Shown here: in pieces, positions 3,664 to 26,105 of the stretch
How positions within the stretch are numbered: the first letter of the stretch is position 1
Layout of the letters: every line of letters starts with the position of its first letter
Virus record (IMG/VR): IMGVR_UViG_3300042371_000459
Coordinates: 1 to 26,105 of that record
DNA: 26,105 nucleotides
DNA from: a virus
Lineage: Duplodnaviria > Caudoviricetes
Reading direction: 5' to 3' (one strand)
Translations under genes and position numbers: made by a program
The notes under the pieces: model-generated
Told to the model about the DNA's origin: nothing
What the model saw: only the letters and a program-made list of their open reading frames with translations
The model's database searches: none

Positions 3664-4114
3664 AGAAAGAGAGCTGTTGAAAAGGTGTTTAGATTTTATG
3701 ATTGATGTAGGTGCAAACCTTAACCCGTTATTTAAAGAAGCTAATGATGTACTACTCACCCAACCTGAGCAAGAGCCTGTGGCTTGGATGTATGAATGGG
3801 ATACAACGACTACAGGGCAACCTACCTGTAAGTATGTAAATATGGGAAAAGATAAGCCTAATGTTGAAGCTAATTTTTTAGCTAGAAATTTTATACCACT
3901 CTACACAGTTCCACAAAACCATGATTTACGAGAAGCTTTACGAGAAGGGTACAATCAAGGATTTAACGATGGTAAATATTTAAGTTCACCAAAACGTGAA
4001 CCTTTGAGTGATGAAGAAATGAGGGCTATCTGGAAGGAGGGAGTTAGAGGGGAAATACCTTTTGTTGAAATCGGAAGAGCAATAGAAAAAGCACACGGCA
4101 TTGGAGGTGAGTGA
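3656..4114 (+). CDS. modular array protein 2
   Basis: GGAG at 3646-3649 then ATG 3656. MSEERELL…QPEQEPVAWMYEW…PLYT…KREPLSDEE…AIEKAHGIGGE. Confidence 0.8.
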   Translation: MSEERELLKRCLDFMIDVGANLNPLFKEANDVLLTQPEQEPVAWMYEWDTTTTGQPTCKYVNMGKDKPNVEANFLARNFIPLYTVPQNHDLREALREGYNQGFNDGKYLSSPKREPLSDEEMRAIWKEGVRGEIPFVEIGRAIEKAHGIGGE

Positions 4115-4410
4115 TGAGTAAAGAAAGAGAGATACTTAGAAAAATTGTAGATTATATGTGGGAAGGCGAGCTTGTTGATGAAATAAAAGAACTCCTCGCC
4201 CAACCTGAGCAAGAGGCTGTTGAGGATAGGATTGCGCGATGGCATCGGCTGGGATATGAGCAAGGTAAAAAAGCTTCACAACGTGAGCCTTTGAGTGATG
4301 AGGAAATTGCTATTTTGTGGGGTGATAAACATTCTGGTAAAACTTTTATGGTTCGTAACTTTGCAAGAGCAATAGAAAAAGCACACGGTATTGGAGGTGA
4401 CGATGAGTAA
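4114..4410 (+). CDS. modular array protein 3
   Basis: GGAGGTGA SD and TGATG overlap. MSKEREIL…LLAQPEQE…REPLSDEE…AIEKAHGIGG. Lacks the PVAW-PLY module. Confidence 0.8.
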   Translation: MSKEREILRKIVDYMWEGELVDEIKELLAQPEQEAVEDRIARWHRLGYEQGKKASQREPLSDEEIAILWGDKHSGKTFMVRNFARAIEKAHGIGGDDE

Positions 4411-5746: not shown

Positions 5747-7575
5747 TGCAACTAATGTCGATAGATTTTGAGAGCTTCTATTCCAAATCATATAGCCTAT
5801 CTAAACTTACTACAGAAGAGTATATAAATGGTGATGAGTTTGAAGTTATTGGACTGTCTATTAAGTTAGGGGATACACCAACGGCGTGGTACACAGGCAG
5901 TCAATTAGAGATAGCTGAAACGCTTAATCAATTTAATTGGAAGAACATTACCCTGATAGCACACAACTGTTTCTTTGATGCCAGCATCTTGTCTCTTGCG
6001 TTTAACATTTACCCTGCTAGATATATCGACACTCTATCTATGGCTAGAGCTATACATGGTATATCGGTAGGGGGGAGCCTAGCTAAACTAGCGACACATT
6101 ATGAGCTAGGAGAGAAAGGTACTGAGGTAGTAGATGCATTGGGTAAGCACTTAAAAGACTTTACTGCGGCTGAGTTAGCTAAGTATGGAGAGTATTGTAT
6201 TAATGATACTGAGTTAACCTATGCCTTATTCCAAAAGCTTATAGCCCATTACAACGCCACTGAGTTAAGCCTAATAGATATGACCATTAAGATGGGTGTT
6301 GTGCCTAGGTTGATGGTAGATATGGCTATACTGGAGAGCCACTTGTATGAAGTGAAGAGAGCCAAGGAGTTTATACTAGAACAAGTATCTGCTGATAAGT
6401 CTGAGATTATGAGTAACCCTAAGTTCGCTAAGTTGTTAGAATACTATGGGGTAGATGTGCCAATGAAGTTATCTCTTAGGACAGGTAAGATGACCTATGC
6501 GTTTGCTAAGACGGATGATGGGCTGAAGGACTTACTTGAACACCCTAACTTAGTAGTACAAGCATTGGTTGCCGCTAGGTTAGGAGTTAAGTCTACTATA
6601 GAAGAGACACGCACTGAGCGGTTTATAGGCATTGCAAATCGTATGGGTAGGCTACCTATCCCCCTTAACTACTATGGTGCGGCTACAGGTAGATGGTCTG
6701 CGGGTGGTGGGCAGAAGGTGAACTTCCAGAACCTACCTAGGGGAAGCATGATTAAAGAAGCGATCATAGCCCCTGAAGGCTATCTAATAGTAGGTGCTGA
6801 CTTATCAAACATAGAACTACGTGTGGGTATGTGGGTAGCTGGTGAGACAGAAGCACTAAGGTTATTAGGTGAGGGTGGGGATTTATATAAAGAGTTTGCT
6901 AGTAAAGCCTTTGATGTTCCCTATGATGAGGTTACTAAAGAACAAAGGTTTATAGGTAAGCAATCGCAGCTATCATTAATATTTGGGGTGGGGGCTACCA
7001 AGCTAAGGCTGGCAATAAAAACTCTTTCGGGGGTAGACTTAGGCGAGGTAGAGTCTAAGCGGATCGTTGACCTATACAGAGCCACTTACACAGGCGTTAC
7101 TAATCTATGGAAGTTATGTACTACTGCTATTAAAACTATAGCAGAGAACGGGGAGTACACGTTTGGCACTGGGAACTTGTATGTAGTAGAGGGTACTAAA
7201 GGCATTAGGTTCCCATCAGGTATGTACATGCAGTATCCACAACTTGCTAATGTTATAGATGAGAAGACAGGAGAGCAAGGATATAAGTACAAACTACGCA
7301 ATGGCTATGATAGACTATACGGCGGTAAATTAACAAACAATCTAGTGCAGGGCACAGCCCGATGCATTATGTCAGAAGCAATGGTTAGAGTGAATAAGCG
7401 GTATCCTATCGTACTTACTATTCATGATGCTCTATATATCCTTGCTCCTGAAGCTGAGGCACAGGAAGCCTTAGACTTTTTAATAGAAGAGATGACTAAG
7501 GTTCCCTCATGGATGCCCGGTATACCACTAGCGGCTGAAGGTGGGTATGGTAGAAGCTTAAAAGATGCAGGATAA
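5746..7575 (+). CDS. polA: phage family A DNA polymerase with 3'-5' exonuclease domain
   Basis: 609 aa. Exo I DFE, Exo II HNCFFD, Exo III YCIND; TGRWS; NFQNLP; motif A DLSNIELR; motif B RFIGKQSQLSLIFG; NLVQG; motif C TIHDA. Confidence 0.95.
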   Translation: MQLMSIDFESFYSKSYSLSKLTTEEYINGDEFEVIGLSIKLGDTPTAWYTGSQLEIAETLNQFNWKNITLIAHNCFFDASILSLAFNIYPARYIDTLSMARAIHGISVGGSLAKLATHYELGEKGTEVVDALGKHLKDFTAAELAKYGEYCINDTELTYALFQKLIAHYNATELSLIDMTIKMGVVPRLMVDMAILESHLYEVKRAKEFILEQVSADKSEIMSNPKFAKLLEYYGVDVPMKLSLRTGKMTYAFAKTDDGLKDLLEHPNLVVQALVAARLGVKSTIEETRTERFIGIANRMGRLPIPLNYYGAATGRWSAGGGQKVNFQNLPRGSMIKEAIIAPEGYLIVGADLSNIELRVGMWVAGETEALRLLGEGGDLYKEFASKAFDVPYDEVTKEQRFIGKQSQLSLIFGVGATKLRLAIKTLSGVDLGEVESKRIVDLYRATYTGVTNLWKLCTTAIKTIAENGEYTFGTGNLYVVEGTKGIRFPSGMYMQYPQLANVIDEKTGEQGYKYKLRNGYDRLYGGKLTNNLVQGTARCIMSEAMVRVNKRYPIVLTIHDALYILAPEAEAQEALDFLIEEMTKVPSWMPGIPLAAEGGYGRSLKDAG

Positions 7576-7838: not shown

Positions 7839-8002
7839 TGGGTAGAGAAGAAAATGTGTACATGAAAGCGTTTCCAAAATTTGTTACTTTATCTGAGCAA
7901 ACACGACTAAACGTGCTTAGGATGATATTAACGGAGGAAGAATACGAACAAGTAGTAGAGCTATACGAAAAAGAAAAAACTTTAAAAAATGAAATGGGCT
8001 GA
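7838..8002 (+). CDS. hypothetical protein (54 aa)
   Basis: TGATG overlap with the upstream gene. MGREENVYMKAFPKF…KNEMG*. Confidence 0.55.
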   Translation: MGREENVYMKAFPKFVTLSEQTRLNVLRMILTEEEYEQVVELYEKEKTLKNEMG

Positions 8003-8060
8003 CTTCATATTCCCCCCTATAAACCTTTGGTGCTACCCTAAACAATATGAGGATTATAAA

Positions 8061-8327
8061 ATGATTACCGAAGAGACAACTGTGAAACCCTTATGGAAAG
8101 CAAAGAGTAGTGTAGACAACATGCAGGTTGGTGGGGATCACTATAAAGATATGTCAATACAACCTTGGACAGTAATGGAATCTATATTAACTTATGAAGA
8201 GTTTGTAGGTTTTCTTAAAGGGAACATTATTAAATACTCAATGAGAGACGGTAAGAAAGAGCACTCTCAAGATGCAGGGAAGGCGGCTCATTACATAGCT
8301 AAACTAATAGAGGTGCAACAGAAATGA
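8061..8327 (+). CDS. DUF3310 / SaV-like / T7 gp1.7-like protein (putative nucleotide kinase family)
   Basis: QVGGDHY…IQPW…GFLKGNIIKY-x-x-R-x-G-K-K…D-x-x-KA-x-HY. GAGGA SD before ATG 8061. The frame is open from ATG 7989, which is an alternative start. Confidence 0.85.
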   Translation: MITEETTVKPLWKAKSSVDNMQVGGDHYKDMSIQPWTVMESILTYEEFVGFLKGNIIKYSMRDGKKEHSQDAGKAAHYIAKLIEVQQK

Positions 8328-13532: not shown

Positions 13533-14015
13533 ATGTTAACAGAAAACCAACTAAAAAATTACTGGCGTAAAGTAGATAAAAAAGAGGAGGCTGAGTGCTG
13601 GAACTGGAAGTCCCCTTCTATTGCTAGTGGTTATGGAGTGTTTAAATTTAATTCTCCTAGAGAACAAGGAAGTGCTCATAGAGTAGCTGCTTATATTGCA
13701 GGATTAATTCCGAGTATAAGAAGCCTAAATAACCATGACTATGTATTACATACTTGTGATAATAAGCTCTGCCAAAACCCCGCTCATTTTTTTATCGGAG
13801 ACGCCTCTGATAATAACCGTGATAAATCTCTTAAAGGAAGAGCCCCTAAAGGGGAGACGCATAAAAATTCTAAATTAACTGAGAAGGACGTTGTTTCTAT
13901 TAGAGATACATATTTACAAGGGGGTATTACACATCAAAGACTTGCTGATATATACGGGGTATGTAATCAATTAATATGTATGATTATAAACCGTAGAATT
14001 TGGAGACATGTGTGA
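13533..14015 (+). CDS. free-standing HNH homing-type endonuclease with C-terminal HTH
   Basis: 160 aa. CWNW…GYG…AHR…VLHTCDNKLCQNPAH…DNNRD, then SKLT…LADIYGV…II. Confidence 0.88.
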   Translation: MLTENQLKNYWRKVDKKEEAECWNWKSPSIASGYGVFKFNSPREQGSAHRVAAYIAGLIPSIRSLNNHDYVLHTCDNKLCQNPAHFFIGDASDNNRDKSLKGRAPKGETHKNSKLTEKDVVSIRDTYLQGGITHQRLADIYGVCNQLICMIINRRIWRHV

Positions 14016-16813: not shown

Positions 16814-16842
16814 AAGAGAGGGGGCTTTACGCCCCCTTTTCT
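16814..16842. terminator. bidirectional terminator between convergent gene blocks
   Basis: AAAAGAGA-GGGGGC-tttac-GCCCCC-TTTTCT lies between the stops at 16813 (+) and 16841 (-). Confidence 0.85.
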
Positions 16843-19800
16843 ACCTGCTTACGCCTTTTTCATCAGCTCGTTTTATTGCCCGATTTGCCAGCTTATTAAT
16901 CTTTTCTTGAAGTACCCGTATACGTGTAGCTTTTTCATCAGGTGACATTTCAGTATCAGGCGTATTCTTTATACGAGCTATACGCCCTTGCATAGTTCCG
17001 ATCTGTTCCCCTGTTGCTCCTAGTAGAGGAGCCATCTTACGTAGTTTCTCATTCTCAGGTTCGTTCCTTAAAGCCTTAGCTTCCTCTTTATCCCCAACTT
17101 GCTTATAAGCTCTAATACCATTAACAATTTGTTCTGCTGACTTAGCTAAGGCGTAGTAATCACTAAGAGCTTTGTCTTTAGCTGGAGCAGTTACTACCCC
17201 TTTCCATAAGAACTTTTCTCCTAACTCTTTCGTGGGAGCAGATACCCCCGTAACACTAGAGATATAGGCATCCGCCAACAAAGCAGATAGTGCCCACGCC
17301 TCTGTAAACCAACCTTTACCTAAATGCTCTATATCATTAGGGGACATATTTAAAAAGCTTGGTAACCCCCCTGCTATTTTCTCAGCTAAAGGAGTTGCGT
17401 GTGCTGTACGTTGGTTTAAAGGCAGTCTACTTTCTGTAAAACTATTAATAGGGTTGCCTGTATAAAGGTCATGGTTCATTAATACTTCCCCTACAGGCTT
17501 AACTGTTTGAGGGAGTATTGGAGGTACCGATAGAGCCTTAAACGCCTCCCACAACGCTTTCCTACCCCCTTTAGGTGTAAGCGATCCCCTACTTACACGC
17601 ACCAGTATTTCAGGGATAACTTTAAATAAAAACCCCGCTTCAAAATGGATAGGTATTTTTATAAAAGGGTTATCTTTATTTCCTGTAGGTATTAGCCAAC
17701 TAGTTATCCAGTCGGTGGATTTCCTATACTCCTCATCATCGTCCATCTGTAGAGCGTACAATATAGAAGCTGTTGTTACCATAGCCGCATTAGCATAGAA
17801 GTGCTTTCTAACAGTAGCCGCATCTTTTACGTTTAAATTACCGTAACCCCCCGGAATTGCGGCTCTAGCAAGGGTGTCCATACCATTTAACGTAGAAGCA
17901 AAGAAAGGGACAGAGTCTCGCATAGCCGCATGATTCCTAGACTTTCCTTTTTTAGAGAAGTTTATTAATTCCTTAGCTTGCATCGCAGCAAAATTCTTAC
18001 GTTGTTGAGGGTCTACTATCCCACGTTTAGCTGCCAGCTTAAGAGCCTTTTCATAAACAGCAACCCTAGTACCTGCATCGGACGCTTCATGTACGTGTAC
18101 AATAAAGTCCCTAAGCCAACCTGATACCCCACGTTTAGTTGCTATGCTTTTTACAAGTTGTGTTGTATCTGTTAAGGTATCTACGGCACCCGTAATACCC
18201 CTTCTCTGTAGCTCGTTATACCCCTCAGAACGGCGGGCTACAATTTTACCCATGTGATATAAAGCGTGTAGGGGTGTAATAAGGCCCGACTGCGTTACTA
18301 AGTTTGCCATCAAAGGGTCCCGTATAAGCTGACGGTACCAGTATACGGGGGTGGTCAAGGTAACTTTCCTAAAAACATTTGCGTGTGCTTTAGCTACTTT
18401 TCTCATCCACCCCGGCTGAAGGGGTATCATAGTTTGGAATGCTTCAAACGCTAGAGTGTCCCCTATGTGGTAGTAAACATCCTCCCCATTCACCTTAAAC
18501 TTAGTTGCCTGTGGGTCACTTCGGTCCTTCGTTTCATAAAAAAGAGTATCCGCAACTGCGTTTAACTGCATAGCCGCAGTCTGCCTTGCAATGTTTTGAG
18601 CCGCCGCCCCTGCCATAAGCGCAGAGTGCTTTACTAAGTTTTCTGCGACATTAACCGTTTGCTTACTCCCTTCACGTGATTTAACTTCCCAAGAATGTTT
18701 AGCCCCTAGTGAGAGCACCTCTACGTATTTAGAAGGGTCGTCAGATAAATCTTCTATACTTTTATATAGGGGGATATAAGCAGGGTTTGATCGCCAATCA
18801 TTGGCTGTAGTACTATTAATAATCCCTGCTTTTTCAAATAGGTCTACATCTTTACGGAGCCTCTCAAATATATTATTCATGATGTCCCCTAGTCTAGGGT
18901 CTTCAATCAGTAACGCTTCAGTCAAGGCAATATCTTCTGGCGTAACACGTTGTTCAGTACCCACACCTACTTCTAGTGTTTTAGTTAACCTATCAACATC
19001 ATTTCTAAGCTTCTCCACTTGGTCTAGTAAGGAGTCACGTTTAGTCTTGTCTGTAGTAGTAGCCACAAGTGCTTCTTTCTTCTCTGCTTTTGCTATCTTA
19101 GCATCTATGTCAGCTTGTACGTCAACTGCAGATTTCTTACCATGCTTAGCGTATAGCTTATTAGAGGCTTCTTTTAACTGAGTGGCTCTAGTAGTAAGGG
19201 CTACTTTTTCTTTAGTAATGATGGATATAACACTCTTAAAGTCTTTTATTTGAACTGCATCTTTAGCAGTAACCGCAGCGGCAAGTGCCCTTCTTGCGTC
19301 TACTAACGCACCTGTTAGGTGATCTATATCCCCTTGTAGGACCTTTTCAAAATCTTTATATAACTTAGCATCAGCCCGGCGCTCTACATCTATACGGAGT
19401 ATCTCTTTCCCAGCCACTACACGCAGAGCTGTGAAGAATGTTTTGCGGTTGTCCTTATACCCTAGTCCGTCAATAAGTTTAATATTATTATGCAAGTCTA
19501 GTCTAGGGTCGTCTACAGACATAAGAGTTCCGTCACCAGTTGTGTCTATATACCCCCTGCTATTACGCAACATATTGCTAAGGTTTCCTATTGACTGAAG
19601 TACGAAGTCTCCTCGCATCTTTCCTTTTGGGTCAAACATATCTAGCGGTTTCAATAAACGGCTTATCGCAGCTGAGTCATCTATCCACCCAGCCCGCAAC
19701 TTAACTATATTGTCCCCTGTCATAAAACCAGAAACAGCCTCTCGGATAACCCCACTTATACTTTTATCTGAAGTCTTAACAAGGCCCAAACCAACTAATG

Positions 19801-22800
19801 CTTTACCAATATCCTGTGCATCTTTAGTTGGTTTGATTGAATAAGACGTACCTTCTTTACGAGCGGTTCGTACTGCAGTTTTAGACTCTCTGCGTAAGGC
19901 TTTAACAGCTAGGTGCCTAGCATCAGCTTCAGTTAGTTGTAGCTTCATACCCAAATGCATACGGGCAAAGTTCCTAACTGCAGATACAATCTTTTTAACG
20001 ACAGGTAAGTTTGGAGCGTTCTCTACTAGATAAGCAAGTGCCTCATGGTGGCGCAAGTGTGTAGGTGTATCTTTAGGAATAGAAGCACGAGCCTTATCAA
20101 AAACTTCCCCTACATTGTTCAGGGCTTGGTTTGCAATATCTTTGTATACTTTAGACCCAACTAAGTTCTCCATACCTACATGGGTTCCCACCTCATGCAA
20201 TGCTACGTTCTCTAGAGTCTCAGGCGTTAGCTTGTTAGCTACATAGTGAGTTACACCTTCAGCAGTAGTTAGCCCTTGCACGTTCGCAGGGTGTTTGCCT
20301 TCAGGTAGAGTCTCAGCAGTATCATGCATAACAGCCTTACCAGATGCCACTAGGCGTTTCATCTCAGGTGATAAGGTCTTAGACAACGAAGCGGCGGTGT
20401 GTTCGGTAAGTTCAGAAGTAGGTGCTACTGATTGGTAATCATGCCCGCTATAGTCAAAATCACCAAAATCCATTTGTTCAGCTATATCGCTATCGTCCTC
20501 AAAATCATACATAGAGTCATCTGATAACGTCTTAGTTGTATCTTCTACATCTTCCTCTACATCTTCATCTACAACTTTCTTAGTTTTTTTAGCTTTCTTA
20601 CCCTGCACTTCTAATAACTTTTTAGCTTCAGCTTCTTTGTTTTTCCTTAATACTTCAGCTGCGTCATCAGCTACGATCTTAGCATCTGCAGCTTCCTTAG
20701 CGGCTTTTTTATCAGCAAACCCTTGCACTATCAGTTGGTTCTTCTCATACTCACCAACTTCACCCTCATCAACAACACCATTTTTAGTCTTTGATTGACC
20801 GCGTTCTTTATTATATTCATCTATATAATCTGGATGGTACTTTCTCCACAAACCAGTTGACGCAGCGTTAAATAATTTGGACGTACTATTACCAAATCCT
20901 AGTTTATCAATAACATGAAGAGCCCCTTCCTCAGAAGGTTTTGTTAACGAGTCATATAATATTTTATTTAGTTCTTTAGAACCGTATTTGCTATTTAATA
21001 AGTCTGATAAATTGTTTTCAACTATATTAAAATGAGCTAGTGGGACTGGAACCCCTGATTTATTGCGCCCAGTAAAGGTTATACTGCCTTTAACATAATC
21101 TACCGATACTTTTCCTTTATTTGCAGTTTCAAGATATAATACCTCCCCTCTATCTTGTGCATTTATGGCTTTTATATTATAGGTCTGTGCAGGATTATTT
21201 GAAGTTATATAAAGACCCCGACCTGCGGTATCTATAGAGGCTTCTCCTTTATCTGTTGTATGTTCGTAATGCTCAGCATACATCTCATCTCTAGGTATAT
21301 ATGAAACCCCTTCTACACCAACTTCACCCTCATCCTTCTTACCTGCTTTATCTATTACACTATCAATCCCTTGCTGGTTTATCTGTAGCCCTACACCTAT
21401 TTTTTGTGCCGTAGGTGTTATAGCCTGTTCTATCTGTTTAGCTACTCCTGAATGAGGCATATCTGGGTCTATATCTAAGCCCAGTCTTGTAGCAATATTA
21501 TATAAAGCATCTATGTTAGTTTGAGAAGGTTCCCTAGTTTTTGACTTTCTTATACTTGCATCATACTTATCTAACACAGTTTGTGACGCACTTATTAATG
21601 CAGGGGCTACTTCTTCTTTAGCGCCTGTTTCAATAGCTTCGATCCCTTGTCCTTCTGATTCCATTCCTTTGCCAACTTGGGTGATATCTTCAGCTGCTTG
21701 GCTTTCTTGGGATTGTGTGCTGCCATCGCCATTAATCGGGCTTGTGCTGGGGATTTGCTGGGCATCAGTTGTCTCTCCTAGTGTAGGTGTAGTTTGTCCT
21801 TGTTGTATTGCTTCCATGTAGTTCGGTAGTATTTTTGATTGCTCCTCTGTTATAGTACCTGCTCTTTTAAGTTCTGCAATAACAGGGGCTGTTATCTTTC
21901 TAATAGCTTCATGGTCAGCAGGGTTGTTAATATCCAAACCTTTAGATGCAATATTTTTATATACTCCACTTTTTTTATGCAGTCCTAGCATATCTGTAAC
22001 CCAAGTAGGCTCAGTCTTTACAGGCTTTACAGGCTTTTCTTTTTTCCCTCTTAGTATAGGTTCTTTCACAGCTACTACTGGTGCTCCTGCTACAACTTCT
22101 TCCACCCCTGCTACTACTGGTGGGCCACCTGCCGCTGCTTCAGCTACACGTGCTCTTTCTTCAGGAGTGATAATTAAAGGATTTACTGGAGGTGCAGGTA
22201 CTTCGCCTTGAGGGGGTACAGGTATCTCACCTGCTGGAGGGTTTACGGGTGGTGGAGGTGGAGGAGGTGCTTGTTCTGTAGTACCTGCTATTTGACTAGC
22301 AGTGTTTGCACCACCACCCATGATAGCGCCCATAAGAGCGCCCTTCACACTTTCATCCTCAACACCGTCTAGTAAACCTTTGGGGTTGTCTGTAGCATAG
22401 TTCTGAGCCATTTGTTCTATGGCTGATTGAGGCGCTTCTTGGAATACACCTTCGCCTATCATAGATACTAGGGTAGACCTAAAGAACCCCGGAGTATTAG
22501 CAACATCCCCAAACTCTTGCAGTGCCATCTTCCTAGCGTTGCCTGAGAGAAGTATGTTGGGGTCAATACCCCCTAATGCCGTAGTAAGCTTAGCACCTGC
22601 AGCTCCAACTACACCCGTCCCAACTCCTGTAAGTAACGCCGCTTGGGTGTTTGCTCCTGTTGCTTCGCCTTCTGGGTTGGTAACTCTTAAGTTTTCTTTC
22701 TGAGCACCTGCACCTACACCTGCTTCACCTATACCTGCAGCAAAATAAGGAGCAACTGCTGGTACTTTAGTTAAAACTTTACCTAACCCCATTAACCCTG

Positions 22801-23929
22801 CTTTAGCTATACCTGCACCACCTACCATTTGACCTGCAGACTCACCTATAGCTGAAACTACTGCTGAGGGGTTATCTTTAGCGGCTTGTAGGACAGCTCT
22901 CCATCCATGAGCTGCAGCTAAGTTCTTAATGGCTTCTTGTTGTTGAGGAGAGTATTGCGTACTTAAGTACTCTTGCACTTTGTTGAGGTCAAGCCCTGCA
23001 TCTTCAACGGCCCCCCCTAAATCTCCCGGTGTAAGAAGATCAGCTAAGCCTATAAAAGATTGACCTAGACCTACACCGCCTTTCATAGCGCCTACACCAA
23101 TATCTTCCAATACCTTAGTACCACGACCTTCTGTTTCTTTTTTGGGTAGGGAGAAATCTATAGTAGGGTCTGCTTCTGAGGCTCGTTTAACAGCTTCTTC
23201 GTCTGACATATTATCAGGAACCCGTAATGTGCCCCCATTAGCTAAAGGTACTTCTCTTAGACCAACTGCATCTATACCGTGTGCTCTAGCATCTGCAATA
23301 GCTTGCTCTCTAGGCATACCAACAGGAGCATGTAAAGAACCCCCATTAGCTAAAGGAATTTCATACATCTCCCCTTTAGGGCCTTCTTGTTCAGGAGGAG
23401 GCGCCCCACCTAGTACATTAGATACGTATAATTGTGTTTCTCTAGGAGTAGCTGATAGCCAGTTGTCCCCTGCTTTTCGTATAGCTTTATTAAGATTGCC
23501 TTCACCGTAGTTATAAGCAGCAACAGCCTTAGCCATATCACCGTTATAATACTTAACCAAACCTGCCATCTTCTTACCAGCAGCATCAATAGATGCATAC
23601 GGATCAAGTGCATCAACCCCATACTCTTTAGCAGTAGGAGGCATTAACTGCATCAAACCAGTAGCACCTGCAGGACTTACGGCATTAGGGTTGTACCTAC
23701 TTTCATTGTAGCCTATAGTAGATAGTAAGCCTTCTGGTAATCCGTATTGACCCTCAGCTTTTAGAAACGCTTCTCCGTATGAGGAGGCGGGACCTTGTTG
23801 GGGTTGAGGCATATACTGAGATATGTCCTCTTCAGGAAGTGCTTGTGTAGGAGTAGCAGGTTGTATTCCAAAAAGGTCTGCGGAAACAGCAGGGTTATAA
23901 GCAAAAGGATTTGATTCTGTATTAGCCAT
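16841..23929 (-). CDS. giant polyvalent-type internal virion/ejection protein: N-terminal lytic transglycosylase (SLT), HExxH-like peptidase region, LPD38-like C-terminus
   Basis: 2362 aa. SLT motifs ESRYNPNAVS-GATGLMQLMP-AAYNYG; Gly/Ala-rich segment; ALHEVGTH…HEALAY; C-terminal PFF…W-x-I-P…IKIPIHFEAG. Confidence 0.85.
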   Translation of the reverse strand: MANTESNPFAYNPAVSADLFGIQPATPTQALPEEDISQYMPQPQQGPASSYGEAFLKAEGQYGLPEGLLSTIGYNESRYNPNAVSPAGATGLMQLMPPTAKEYGVDALDPYASIDAAGKKMAGLVKYYNGDMAKAVAAYNYGEGNLNKAIRKAGDNWLSATPRETQLYVSNVLGGAPPPEQEGPKGEMYEIPLANGGSLHAPVGMPREQAIADARAHGIDAVGLREVPLANGGTLRVPDNMSDEEAVKRASEADPTIDFSLPKKETEGRGTKVLEDIGVGAMKGGVGLGQSFIGLADLLTPGDLGGAVEDAGLDLNKVQEYLSTQYSPQQQEAIKNLAAAHGWRAVLQAAKDNPSAVVSAIGESAGQMVGGAGIAKAGLMGLGKVLTKVPAVAPYFAAGIGEAGVGAGAQKENLRVTNPEGEATGANTQAALLTGVGTGVVGAAGAKLTTALGGIDPNILLSGNARKMALQEFGDVANTPGFFRSTLVSMIGEGVFQEAPQSAIEQMAQNYATDNPKGLLDGVEDESVKGALMGAIMGGGANTASQIAGTTEQAPPPPPPPVNPPAGEIPVPPQGEVPAPPVNPLIITPEERARVAEAAAGGPPVVAGVEEVVAGAPVVAVKEPILRGKKEKPVKPVKTEPTWVTDMLGLHKKSGVYKNIASKGLDINNPADHEAIRKITAPVIAELKRAGTITEEQSKILPNYMEAIQQGQTTPTLGETTDAQQIPSTSPINGDGSTQSQESQAAEDITQVGKGMESEGQGIEAIETGAKEEVAPALISASQTVLDKYDASIRKSKTREPSQTNIDALYNIATRLGLDIDPDMPHSGVAKQIEQAITPTAQKIGVGLQINQQGIDSVIDKAGKKDEGEVGVEGVSYIPRDEMYAEHYEHTTDKGEASIDTAGRGLYITSNNPAQTYNIKAINAQDRGEVLYLETANKGKVSVDYVKGSITFTGRNKSGVPVPLAHFNIVENNLSDLLNSKYGSKELNKILYDSLTKPSEEGALHVIDKLGFGNSTSKLFNAASTGLWRKYHPDYIDEYNKERGQSKTKNGVVDEGEVGEYEKNQLIVQGFADKKAAKEAADAKIVADDAAEVLRKNKEAEAKKLLEVQGKKAKKTKKVVDEDVEEDVEDTTKTLSDDSMYDFEDDSDIAEQMDFGDFDYSGHDYQSVAPTSELTEHTAASLSKTLSPEMKRLVASGKAVMHDTAETLPEGKHPANVQGLTTAEGVTHYVANKLTPETLENVALHEVGTHVGMENLVGSKVYKDIANQALNNVGEVFDKARASIPKDTPTHLRHHEALAYLVENAPNLPVVKKIVSAVRNFARMHLGMKLQLTEADARHLAVKALRRESKTAVRTARKEGTSYSIKPTKDAQDIGKALVGLGLVKTSDKSISGVIREAVSGFMTGDNIVKLRAGWIDDSAAISRLLKPLDMFDPKGKMRGDFVLQSIGNLSNMLRNSRGYIDTTGDGTLMSVDDPRLDLHNNIKLIDGLGYKDNRKTFFTALRVVAGKEILRIDVERRADAKLYKDFEKVLQGDIDHLTGALVDARRALAAAVTAKDAVQIKDFKSVISIITKEKVALTTRATQLKEASNKLYAKHGKKSAVDVQADIDAKIAKAEKKEALVATTTDKTKRDSLLDQVEKLRNDVDRLTKTLEVGVGTEQRVTPEDIALTEALLIEDPRLGDIMNNIFERLRKDVDLFEKAGIINSTTANDWRSNPAYIPLYKSIEDLSDDPSKYVEVLSLGAKHSWEVKSREGSKQTVNVAENLVKHSALMAGAAAQNIARQTAAMQLNAVADTLFYETKDRSDPQATKFKVNGEDVYYHIGDTLAFEAFQTMIPLQPGWMRKVAKAHANVFRKVTLTTPVYWYRQLIRDPLMANLVTQSGLITPLHALYHMGKIVARRSEGYNELQRRGITGAVDTLTDTTQLVKSIATKRGVSGWLRDFIVHVHEASDAGTRVAVYEKALKLAAKRGIVDPQQRKNFAAMQAKELINFSKKGKSRNHAAMRDSVPFFASTLNGMDTLARAAIPGGYGNLNVKDAATVRKHFYANAAMVTTASILYALQMDDDEEYRKSTDWITSWLIPTGNKDNPFIKIPIHFEAGFLFKVIPEILVRVSRGSLTPKGGRKALWEAFKALSVPPILPQTVKPVGEVLMNHDLYTGNPINSFTESRLPLNQRTAHATPLAEKIAGGLPSFLNMSPNDIEHLGKGWFTEAWALSALLADAYISSVTGVSAPTKELGEKFLWKGVVTAPAKDKALSDYYALAKSAEQIVNGIRAYKQVGDKEEAKALRNEPENEKLRKMAPLLGATGEQIGTMQGRIARIKNTPDTEMSPDEKATRIRVLQEKINKLANRAIKRADEKGVSR
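20752..21334. repeat. perfect 19-bp direct repeat flanking an in-frame AT-rich segment
   Basis: CACCAACTTCACCCTCATC at 20752-20770 and 21316-21334 (offset 564 nt, 188 codons). Both copies encode DEGEVG. Confidence 0.9.
21607..21765 (-). CDS. nested out-of-frame small basic protein (52 aa) inside the giant gene
   Basis: The minus strand reads TAGGAGAGACAACTG-ATG…TAG and encodes MPSKSPAQARLMAMAAHNPKKAKQLKISPKLAKEWNQKDKGSKLLKQALKKK*. AGGAG is 9 nt upstream of the ATG. Confidence 0.72.
   Translation of the reverse strand: MPSKSPAQARLMAMAAHNPKKAKQLKISPKLAKEWNQKDKGSKLLKQALKKK
23232..23356. repeat. 17-bp direct repeat marking a tandemly duplicated ~36-aa module
   Basis: CCCCCATTAGCTAAAGG at 23232-23248 and 23340-23356. 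Protein copies are EIPLANGGSLHAPVGMPREQA and EVPLANGGTLRVPDNMSDEEA. Confidence 0.85.
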
Positions 23930-23972: not shown

Positions 23973-25691
23973 CTATTTTTTAGGTTGGTTATAAAAAACT
24001 CCAGAATTTCCTACTGGGGCAAAGGGGTTACTAGAACCGCCCCCACTAGCACCACCCCTTCCTTTGTATTGATTCATAATTGTCATTAACCCTTGTACTC
24101 CCTCTTGTATCTCTTCTGGAGACCCTCCACCTTGCAGTCCACGACCATAGATTTCTGCTAGTTTATCCGCTGATAAATTACCTGCTTTAAACGCTGCTTC
24201 TTCCATCGTAGACATATTCTTCATTGCTTGTATGGCTTGCGCCTGTGAAGCTCTAAGCTGTTCTATATTCATAGCCCCCACATTCTTAAGCTTTTCAACG
24301 CCGTAATTTCCTCTAATTCCAAGCATTGTCTCTTCTCTTTTAGCCCTAGCTTCTGCTTCTTTCTCAGCCATCTTAGCTTGTTGACCTATATACGCCTCAG
24401 CAGCAGCCCTATGACCTGCAAGATCAGATTTCTTTTGAGCCATTTGTAGAGCCATTAATTCTTTGTCTGCAGTCCCTTGTTCTTTAGCACCTGATTGATA
24501 AGATGAGAGGCCAGACATAAGACCTGCACCTAGAGCTTGGCTCATATACGGAGTTTGAGCAGATAACATACCACCTATACCTCCAACTAATGCACCAAGC
24601 CCCTTGTCTCTTCTAGCGTTTGCAGCATTTTCTCTAGCCATACCTACTTCTTCAGACATATCAGCTTCAGGACCTAATAACTTCTGGTACTGTGCTATTG
24701 ATTCTTCTGCTGTAAGATGTGGAGTAGTATCTTTGTTTAACATAGACGCCACTACGGCGTCCGCATCATAAGAACTAGGGTTTACAACCCCTTTAGAGAG
24801 GTACTTATCTAAGCCTTGGTATGTCTCTCCTTTAGCTGTAGGAGAAGCGGCATTAGCTTCAGCAGAACTACCCGGTGCAGGAGCAGTATCTTTTTTACTA
24901 TGGTGAGCTTTAACTTTAGGTTTAGCTTTAGGAGCTACCATATCTGACAGTCTATAATCATTTTTAGGACTAGTTTGTTCAGTAGGCATACCCATATCAG
25001 AAATAGGAGCTTCTAATGTAGGTGCTTCGTACTGACCATAAGGTGAAGATGGGTCTCCTCCTAAATTAATAGACGGTAGTCCTGCACTAGGTGCTGTATT
25101 GGTATAAGCTTTATATTTATCTAAAAGATCAGTACCTGTGTTCTTAGCTTGTTTTGCAAAGTTATCAAACCACTTCCCTTCATTAGCTATACCATCTTCT
25201 TCAGTGGTAGCCGCGTCTTCTACTGCATTTTCGTCCTCTACTAACTTAGCTAAACTACCATCTGTACCATCAAAACCTCTAACCTCTCCACCACGAGCTA
25301 AAGCAGTTATACCACCTGTTGCTGCCATTTGTTGAGGAGCTTGTTCAGTATTCTCAGGGGCTACCGCTAGTCCTGCACCAAACATAGGGTTTTGTTGAGC
25401 TGTTTGTTGCATAGCCATCTGGTTTTGGCGTACTTGTGGTAAGCCTTGTGGAGATGTTTGTTGAAACTCTTGTAGCTTCTGTTGCAGTATAGTACCTTGT
25501 GGAGCTTGGGGACGAGGCGCTCTAGCTTGTTGTTGGTACTGAACGCCCATACCTATAGCTAGTAATAGAGGAGAATCTTTTGGTAGCCCTTGTTTAGCCG
25601 CCTCTATCTGCTGTGGAGTAGCTGTTTTTGCCCAATCAAAAAGCTGGTTGTTTTGCTGGCTGTAAGCTTCATTAGTTACTGGAACACTCAT
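23973..25691 (-). CDS. putative internal virion / DNA ejection protein
   Basis: 572 aa, Gln/Ala/Gly-rich, with ATGG…ARGGEV motif, a Gly-rich hydrophobic segment and a coiled coil. GAGG SD. Lies directly upstream of the giant protein. Confidence 0.65.
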   Translation of the reverse strand: MSVPVTNEAYSQQNNQLFDWAKTATPQQIEAAKQGLPKDSPLLLAIGMGVQYQQQARAPRPQAPQGTILQQKLQEFQQTSPQGLPQVRQNQMAMQQTAQQNPMFGAGLAVAPENTEQAPQQMAATGGITALARGGEVRGFDGTDGSLAKLVEDENAVEDAATTEEDGIANEGKWFDNFAKQAKNTGTDLLDKYKAYTNTAPSAGLPSINLGGDPSSPYGQYEAPTLEAPISDMGMPTEQTSPKNDYRLSDMVAPKAKPKVKAHHSKKDTAPAPGSSAEANAASPTAKGETYQGLDKYLSKGVVNPSSYDADAVVASMLNKDTTPHLTAEESIAQYQKLLGPEADMSEEVGMARENAANARRDKGLGALVGGIGGMLSAQTPYMSQALGAGLMSGLSSYQSGAKEQGTADKELMALQMAQKKSDLAGHRAAAEAYIGQQAKMAEKEAEARAKREETMLGIRGNYGVEKLKNVGAMNIEQLRASQAQAIQAMKNMSTMEEAAFKAGNLSADKLAEIYGRGLQGGGSPEEIQEGVQGLMTIMNQYKGRGGASGGGSSNPFAPVGNSGVFYNQPKK

Positions 25692-26104
25692 TATTTTTTA
25701 CCTCTGTTGCTTACTTTACCATTCTTAATTAACCCACCACGAGCCCATTTGCCGGGCGATCCTGTAGTTGTTGTGGTACCTCCTCCTCCTTGTACATTCT
25801 GACCTCCCAAGGTATTAACTACCCCTGCATTAATAGAAGTAGGAGCATTGAGCCAACTAGCGGCGTTACCTGATTGTGCATCAAGGACACTTTGAGCTAG
25901 GTTTTGTCCTGCATTAGCTGCTTGTCCTTGAGCCCCTAAGGTAGCTAAGTCAGCCGCATTTTGAGCAGAGCCTGTACTTGTTAATCCTGAAGCAACTTGC
26001 CCCATACCTTGAAGAGCCCCTATACCCTGTTGATTAGCAGTTAGCCCCGCTTGTTGATTACCTTGACCCGCGGTTAATTGGTTTTGCGCATAGGCGTTGT
26101 TAGC
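25691..26104 (-). CDS. C-terminal part of a putative pilot/ejection protein (truncated by the window edge)
   Basis: The frame stays open from the window end (…ANNAYAQNQLTAGQGNQQAG…) to a TAA that overlaps the next ATG. Ala/Gly/Gln/Asn-rich, with WARGGLIK near the C-terminus. Confidence 0.65.
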   Translation of the reverse strand, partial: ANNAYAQNQLTAGQGNQQAGLTANQQGIGALQGMGQVASGLTSTGSAQNAADLATLGAQGQAANAGQNLAQSVLDAQSGNAASWLNAPTSINAGVVNTLGGQNVQGGGGTTTTTGSPGKWARGGLIKNGKVSNRGKK

Positions 26105-26105
26105 A

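Follow-up and report, generated by a model that had tools for sequence, protein, structure and literature searches.

A conserved 52-codon gene lying one base out of register inside a giant phage polyvalent gene, with the inner frame as the probable older reading

Introduction

Small genes that lie wholly inside larger ones are known in phages, lambda Rz1 being a gene embedded in Rz. In phiX174 gene E is embedded in gene D, and passages of PMC8227390 describe +1 as the commonest frame for internal overlaps. The stretch of viral DNA analysed here (26,105 nucleotides, hereafter the window; a linear virus record, 41% complete, whose sequence is present in lake and freshwater runs) carries a giant gene in which a first-pass annotation had noticed a short open frame shifted by one base. 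Is this short frame a gene, which of the two overlapping readings is the older one, and what would its product do?

Results

The giant gene and its surroundings

The plus strand of the window carries replication genes (a family A polymerase, an SNF2 helicase and a primase-like protein) and the minus strand carries virion-type genes. The left end is occupied by a DUF2201 metallopeptidase/VWA gene (110-1267, plus), and the primase-like gene is preceded by one for a His-Me finger endonuclease (13533-14015, plus). The host of the nested frame (Table 1) is a large polyvalent protein, multidomain, with polyvalent-associated domains (SLT and LPD38) and encoded in the virion gene cluster. Passages of PMC5512222 list LPD38 among the domains exclusive to phage polyvalent proteins, a group believed to undergo packaging and injection; phi24B gp47, which bears LPD38, was detected in virions, and an ejection role has been proposed for it (bioRxiv 10.64898/2026.04.10.717836). 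By analogy, the giant protein of the window is likely to be an ejection (internal virion) protein.

Table 1. Coordinates of the features discussed, in window positions
Feature	Position	Strand	Remarks
Nested gene, 52 codons, phrog_16759 family	21607..21765	minus	+1 frame of host codons 722-775; ATG from 21765, TAG at 21609-21607
Shine-Dalgarno-like AGGAG	21775..21779	minus	9 nt upstream of the nested-gene ATG; read from 21779 to 21775
Acidic linker, the host-frame reading of the nested gene	21605..21766	minus	no aromatic residues
Host gene, 2362-aa large polyvalent protein, likely ejection (internal virion) protein	16841..23929	minus	SLT and LPD38 domains
Lytic transglycosylase SLT (PF01464), host residues 54-155	23465..23770	minus	E 6e-26
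LPD38 (PF18857), host residues 2065-2220	17270..17737	minus	E 6e-18
HEVGTH motif, host residue 1245, possible zincin-like peptidase site	20180..20197	minus	motif only
Conserved host segment, about residues 646-690, directly upstream of the nested gene	21860..21994	minus	judged by eye
Upstream 572-aa gene, same cluster, xxGG motifs, likely another ejection/cargo protein	23973..25691	minus	no family match

The conserved segment directly upstream of the nested gene is visible in 10 of the 14 giants compared (by eye, from the flanking sequences and BLAST segments) and flags the same site in distant homologues. Among close relatives the giant gene is a mosaic, its identity switching by blocks that flank the nested gene (21400-22400 against L082-L089), and the nested gene looks like a recombination anchor within it.

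A complete gene inside the linker

The first-pass annotation had described an AGGAG, a 9-nt spacer, an ATG and 52 codons on the minus strand; all of these elements were recovered, and the translated peptide is identical to the one it gave. Its start and stop both fall within a longer open frame on the same strand, which gives it the full anatomy of an embedded overlapping gene. The two shifted frames of the giant gene hold no other open frame of at least 35 codons with a Shine-Dalgarno-like site and an ATG or GTG start. Its product is small and basic (5.8 kDa, pI 10.8; 14 Lys and one Arg against one Asp and one Glu), and the host-frame linker is poor in hydrophobic residues (15%, against 28% across the giant gene). 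Around the start there is less predicted structure than in 90% of the giant gene's windows, which counts as weak evidence. A scan of 21300-22600 returned one promoter-like site, against 2.1 expected, and no terminator. Metatranscriptome contigs from two studies span the nested stretch and carry no information on strand, level or frame; DNA contigs from four runs over the same stretch contributed sequence variants only.

An excess of C-ending codons in the host frame had also been pointed out. It is there: 16 of the 54 codons over the nested stretch end in C, whereas 54-codon windows elsewhere in the gene average 6.7 and never exceed 15. By itself the excess is modest. As a chance control, we redrew the codons 2000 times with host-synonymous alternatives: the +1 frame stayed open in 34 draws, with an ATG in 21, and no draw agreed with the real peptide at more than 31 of its 52 residues. 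The host protein therefore does not dictate the peptide, as redraws rarely keep the frame open and never recover more of it than this.

Conservation of the nesting

Giant homologues were collected with the C-terminal part of the giant protein as query, a part that excludes the nested site. A look for homologues of the peptide inside other giant genes had been suggested, and they are there: in IMG/VR, 20 of 21 giant loci cover the site and all 20 have the +1 nested gene (one copy, in L133, being degenerate), and in metagenomes 11 of 13 giant loci cover it and 10 have the gene, L140 lacking it, with the caveat that many giant loci are near-identical or belong to the same phage and the counts are not independent. 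The hosts are 22-66% identical to that of the window over the C-terminal part, and their nested peptides 41-98% identical to ours. A sequence pattern built from nested copies matched 20 contigs, all of them nested, and a scan of GTDB gave three matches, one real nested copy and two chance ones.

The start and stop signals are kept along with the peptide, although their letters vary. All 26 nested copies have a Shine-Dalgarno-like motif in front of them, as do 321 of the 3157 remaining +1 starts of these genes (a 10% background); starts are ATG or GTG, stops are TAG or TAA, and the stop is kept in 26/26. An in-frame stop lies 0-4 codons before the nested start in 14 of the 26 copies, so read-in from upstream is unlikely. 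Across 17 giants, only four other open frames with a Shine-Dalgarno-like site and a start were found, none resembling the peptide family. In the five records tested, three of them complete, the nested copy is the sole family copy.

The host reading of the nested stretch leaves a trace in protein sequences too. Run against 1.84 billion representatives, a profile of it retrieved 106 proteins; 57 of these have at least 700 residues and belong to different 50%-identity clusters. All 57 can encode a family-like peptide in +1 (score at least 111, whereas none of 1330 control stretches scored above 26), bearing in mind that they were selected by this same likeness and that the +1 reading is deduced from the protein. 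BLAST clustering joins 46 of them to the giant of the window, places five in a second cluster and leaves six single. Pfam domains were found in 11 of 20 such proteins searched (InPase, LPD39, ART, helicase, GGDEF and PBECR5 among them) and none in the other nine.

The nested gene is nevertheless dispensable in the wider family, being absent from L140, degenerate in L133 and absent from five of five cultured phages with distant LPD38 proteins. The L133 copy (7212-7334, plus) has shrunk to 40 codons, its Shine-Dalgarno-like site, ATG and first ten residues intact and the remainder diverged. At the same site in L140 there is instead a 69-codon +2 open frame (3959-4168, plus) preceded by AGGAGG and encoding four cysteines; family and Atlas searches with it were empty, and the contig search gave one doubtful 23-residue match. 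By eye, an intein-like insert appears to interrupt the SLT domain of the L140 giant.

Selection on the inner frame

The first-pass annotation had also proposed a test for suppressed synonymous variation in the host frame. Inside the nest such variation is suppressed, with host synonymous divergence from L084, L003 and L105 of 0.05-0.07 there, against 0.45-0.73 in four other regions. The comparison of the window with L084 makes the asymmetry plain: counted in the small frame, the changes are 19.5 synonymous and 4.5 non-synonymous; counted in the host frame, 0.3 synonymous and 23.7 non-synonymous. Changes concentrate at third positions of the small frame, where they are non-synonymous for the host. 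When 16 sequences are pooled across 46 codons, the small frame has a pN/pS of 0.35 and the host frame one of 1.78 (uncorrected values from non-independent pairs). Taken as a whole, these patterns point to selection on the small frame and not on the host frame.

The host frame does still constrain the nested DNA, as seen in the linker without an aromatic residue and in the avoidance of T. Thymine occupies 1.8% of small-frame third positions in 25 nested copies, against 12.9% in 53 free ones, and where no stop would result it is found at 23 of 860 positions against 270 of 2014, genome composition being uncontrolled in both comparisons.

Could the nested frame be an untranslated relic or by-product, its conservation due to the host protein or to an RNA or DNA signal? 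The degenerate copy in one relative and the lack of any copy in another would suit a relic. Such a reading would have to accommodate substitutions that spare the small frame at the expense of the host, a Shine-Dalgarno-like site, start and stop that persist while their letters change, and a host stretch that cannot on its own dictate the peptide; we consider it very improbable. We are, on the contrary, highly confident that the nested 52-codon gene is real. Because related giant genes keep the small gene under selection, one DNA stretch very likely encodes two proteins.

A family that mostly lives outside the overlap

The peptide belongs to the family phrog_16759 (E 5e-12, over positions 1-45 of 58) and also matches the first 48 positions of phrog_22033 and phrog_25121, both annotated as virion structural proteins; its PHROG matches range from E 5e-12 to 8e-10. 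It matched 93 of 95 candidate proteins of similar length, 5532 of the 8000 longer candidates scored, and 75 phage records, BUCT555, 201phi2-1, RaK2 and 121Q among them. Named relatives (201phi2-1 gp383, phAPEC6 gp161c and BUCT555 QQM14872.1) share 45-70% identity with the peptide and the same predicted fold. Pfam, on the other hand, returned no family for the peptide and 72 family members, three single chance matches apart. A cluster of 394 members in the ESM Atlas (rank 8, score 0.94) carries DUF3008 on 37% of its members, which we treat as a lead only. DUF3008 (PF11450) was rejected as the family's identity, with no Pfam match in the 72 members at E up to 1 and none in the window's genome.

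In the 80 best IMG/VR loci, six copies are nested and 74 are not, the latter comprising 60 free-standing genes, six N-terminal modules and eight internal in-frame modules. The first-pass annotation had likened the peptide to a family of small basic phage proteins that stand alone elsewhere, and the PHROG match and these 60 of 74 loci agree with it. In one locus, two copies of the small gene (L014:1477-1650 and 2595-2798, plus) flank a 309-codon gene, the first copy being broken by a stop.

This distribution speaks to the age of the two frames. Passages of PMC8227390 give wider distribution as the criterion for the ancestral frame of an overlap; since free-standing and fused homologues far outnumber nested ones, the small frame would be the ancestral one and the host linker the new frame. 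The term "overprinted" that had been used for the peptide is thus backwards, the inner frame being widespread and its homologues beyond the overlap numerous. De novo birth by overprinting, which needs a narrower inner frame without outside homologues, was rejected for the same reason, free and fused homologues being far commoner.

How the old gene came to lie inside the giant one can be narrowed less. An independent gene engulfed by fusion had been suggested: the independent gene stands, in that the family is free-standing elsewhere, and fusion of flanking genes would be one possible route. A split arrangement of upstream gene, small gene and downstream gene was found at none of 77 loci with non-nested copies, compared with 15 giants; the search gave one weak match of at least 70 residues (L014, 24%), which does not flank the small gene as it should. 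Insertion or replacement fits as well as fusion or read-through of flanking genes. The overlap step itself is easy: 4 of 53 free copies already have the shifted frame open.

More than one such event may have occurred. Peptide identity does not track host identity (Spearman -0.40 over 66 non-independent pairs). In a peptide tree of 46 columns and 61 rows the nested copies need three changes, and a single change sufficed in 0 of 200 bootstrap trees, but the well-supported branches force only one, so that a single origin is compatible. The hosts of L025 and P0105 have no BLAST likeness to the LPD38 giants. The discordance between peptide and host, the tree and these two hosts are consistent with exchange or several captures. 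The L025 copy (8001-8156, plus) has a GTG start, lies in a GC-rich phage and is a possible separate capture.

The product and where it would act

Structure prediction gives four short helices (residues 6-17, 19-24, 29-40 and 44-50; pLDDT 78, pTM 0.51). Against a viral library the fold search found family members only, other matches being insignificant (E above 3); against 48,161 solved chains the best Z was 3.7, and a sequence search of solved structures gave a single match at E 0.78, so that neither kind of search tied the peptide to a known DNA-binding family. A likeness to helix-turn-helix DNA-binding proteins is unsupported, with no HTH Pfam match in the peptide or 72 members and no significant fold match.

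The virion-module setting first proposed for the family holds in part: of 59 neighbours of free copies scanned (86 being listed), 14 are head, packaging or tail genes, four have other names, nine belong to unknown families, and 32 match nothing. In BUCT555 the free small gene comes after the portal gene. The N-terminus of phAPEC6 gp161c is the module, and this protein is in the virion proteome with six unique peptides, which are not mapped to the module (PMC7247149, Table 1). For 201phi2-1, homologue gp383 is unmarked for mass-spectrometry detection in virions while its neighbour is marked, and passages of the RaK2 paper (PMC3622015) do not name ORF156. A virion role for the peptide is plausible.

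Several of these observations could also be read as a real gene whose peptide acts inside the infected cell rather than in the virion, the nesting tying its synthesis to that of the giant protein. It might be a chaperone of the giant or inhibit it, or act as a head-assembly helper that is not retained, or as a counter-defence factor. The small gene is physically linked to a giant gene in about 30 records, free copies adjoin many kinds of genes, and the unmarked gp383 points the same way. Yet the peptide also occurs in jumbo phages and next to genes for portal, scaffold or capsid proteins, and its fused form (gp161c) is in a virion proteome. The giants that harbour it differ greatly in domain content, from InPase and LPD39 through ART and helicase to GGDEF and PBECR5, which argues against one specific partner. 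We hold an in-cell role to be a tentative alternative, unlikely but worth keeping in mind.

Fused relatives suggest how the virion form might arise. Of 120 longer proteins with the module, 111 have it at the N-terminus and 99 contain xxGG motifs, about 30 of which end at residue 47 (a raw count with no background control); in all eight internal in-frame copies the module begins directly after a Glu. Proteins upstream of the giant also contain xxGG repeats (such as LARGG, WARGG and LAHGG; window 23973-26105, minus, and L083:572-7957, plus). Passages of PMC5694885 report that the prohead proteases of T4 and giant phages cut after Glu. Cleavage of the longer proteins at xxGG, around residue 47, may be inferred from these motifs, which in the upstream proteins and the module-bearing ones are possibly a shared processing or sorting signal.

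The N-terminal placement (111/120) would also suit a quite different scheme, in which the internal start and a -1 shift near the Lys-rich end join the module to the last ~1590 residues of the giant, tagging them for packaging. An A_AAG falls within the last six codons in 20 of 25 nested copies against 18 of 53 free ones, but this excess follows from the Lys tails, T avoidance and kinship. A programmed -1 frameshift site is not apparent: a slippery heptamer occurs in only 2 of 25 nested copies and none is conserved, the tails differ, the downstream 40-nt folds are weak and variable with none conserved, and the stop codon is retained in 26/26. We judge the frameshift scheme improbable.

We thus lean, with moderate confidence, towards a conserved and selected nested gene that is likely translated by itself, with a basic helical product that is likely a DNA-binding peptide internal to the head. 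The internal Shine-Dalgarno-like site and ATG would start independent translation of the nested frame, and ribosomes on the giant gene would read the same bases as a disposable acidic linker, which would separate the N-terminal lysozyme/ejection part from the C-terminal polyvalent part. The small gene would be older than this linker, having arrived through insertion or read-through. Its product would be packaged in the phage head as a small internal DNA-binding protein, and in fused relatives protease cuts would release the module from longer head proteins. A free peptide of about 50 residues would be the common working form, because of the N-terminal module, the xxGG motifs and the post-Glu starts taken together.

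Other genes nested in giant genes

In the five cultured phages with distant LPD38 proteins, the peptide is absent genome-wide, while the same query is positive in 5/5 nested-copy records. Three of the five have other +1 open frames led by a Shine-Dalgarno-like site inside giant genes. The Aeromonas phage phiARM81mr (KT898134.1) has an unrelated 64-codon +1 nested gene (L152:5375-5566, plus; GAGGT site), nested in 38 of 38 relatives (L155-L192), with a pN/pS of 0.35 against 1.27 for the host frame over 27 distinct sequences, and whose 64-aa product has no PHROG match. The host frame of this giant is open for about 2 kb upstream of its annotated start. The Planktothrix phage Pag-Yong1 (OL906435.1) has a 69-codon +1 frame with a strong Shine-Dalgarno-like site in a polyvalent gene (L151:2122-2328, plus), its relatives being identical copies only, in three phage records. 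Over the nested frames of both phages the codon bias is displaced by one base, host positions 1 and 3 having a G+C of 0.99 and 0.56 in Pag-Yong1 (0.71 and 0.90 gene-wide) and 0.82 and 0.35 in phiARM81mr (0.66 and 0.74 gene-wide). In Vibrio phage D274, a 35-codon basic +1 frame with a GAGGT site lies in a giant gene (L153:7091-7195, plus); it has no family match and may be there by chance.

The nested peptide gene is probably one case of a general passenger site. In a broader form of this idea, to which we give an even chance, the linker behind the ejection part would be a general passenger slot, which complete, older small genes repeatedly enter in +1 and where they are swapped between lineages while the giant frame is re-tuned to allow read-through; of these passengers our peptide would have spread furthest, after more than one capture, and it would serve universally as a head-packaging or DNA-binding module of about 50 residues. 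If so, phage annotation would be overlooking a class of hidden, co-expressed peptides with head or effector roles.

Discussion

The overlap described here would have arisen in the direction opposite to textbook overprinting, an old gene lying within a larger one whose frame is the new sequence. The arrangement persists across giants that share about a quarter of their residues and leaves its host-frame trace in 57 long proteins; gene callers are therefore likely to miss the nested gene in many phage genomes, and the search for that trace is a simple route to more such genes. It also brings to light a very large uncharacterised module family, whose fused and free copies number in the thousands and which lends itself to tests in cultured phages. 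Our literature search, whose coverage mostly excluded subscription papers, found no description of the peptide family or of a gene nested in a polyvalent gene.

Among known systems, the closest in form are lambda Rz1/Rz and phiX174 E/D, each a complete small gene with its own start, on the same strand and in +1, wholly inside a larger gene. Embedded +1 phage genes are thus already known, and what is new here is the reversed genealogy and the wide spread: unlike the overprinting model, in which the inner frame is new and narrow, the inner gene would be old and widespread and the outer frame a drifting linker. In contrast to the lambda spanins, no functional pair of that kind is known for the nested gene and its host.

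On the side of the host, the giant resembles LPD38 polyvalent proteins and phi24B gp47 in its size, its SLT and LPD38 domains and its place at the end of the virion cluster; the passages of PMC5512222 and bioRxiv 10.64898/2026.04.10.717836 on these proteins mention no gene inside a polyvalent gene. On the side of the peptide, phrog_16759 (of unknown function) and the N-termini of phrog_22033 and phrog_25121 (from RaK2/121Q-like jumbo phages) are of the same family. The annotated relatives examined are free-standing or in-frame N-terminal modules, none lying out of frame within another gene.

The T4 internal proteins and capsid-targeting propeptides, as described in passages of PMC5694885, are small head-packaged pieces cut at Glu by a prohead protease, and a Glu immediately precedes the module in all eight of its internal copies. 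The T4 targeting sequences have 10-20 residues and are removed (PMC5694885, in the same passages), whereas the module has about 45-50 residues, is also made alone, and has no sequence relation to them that we could find.
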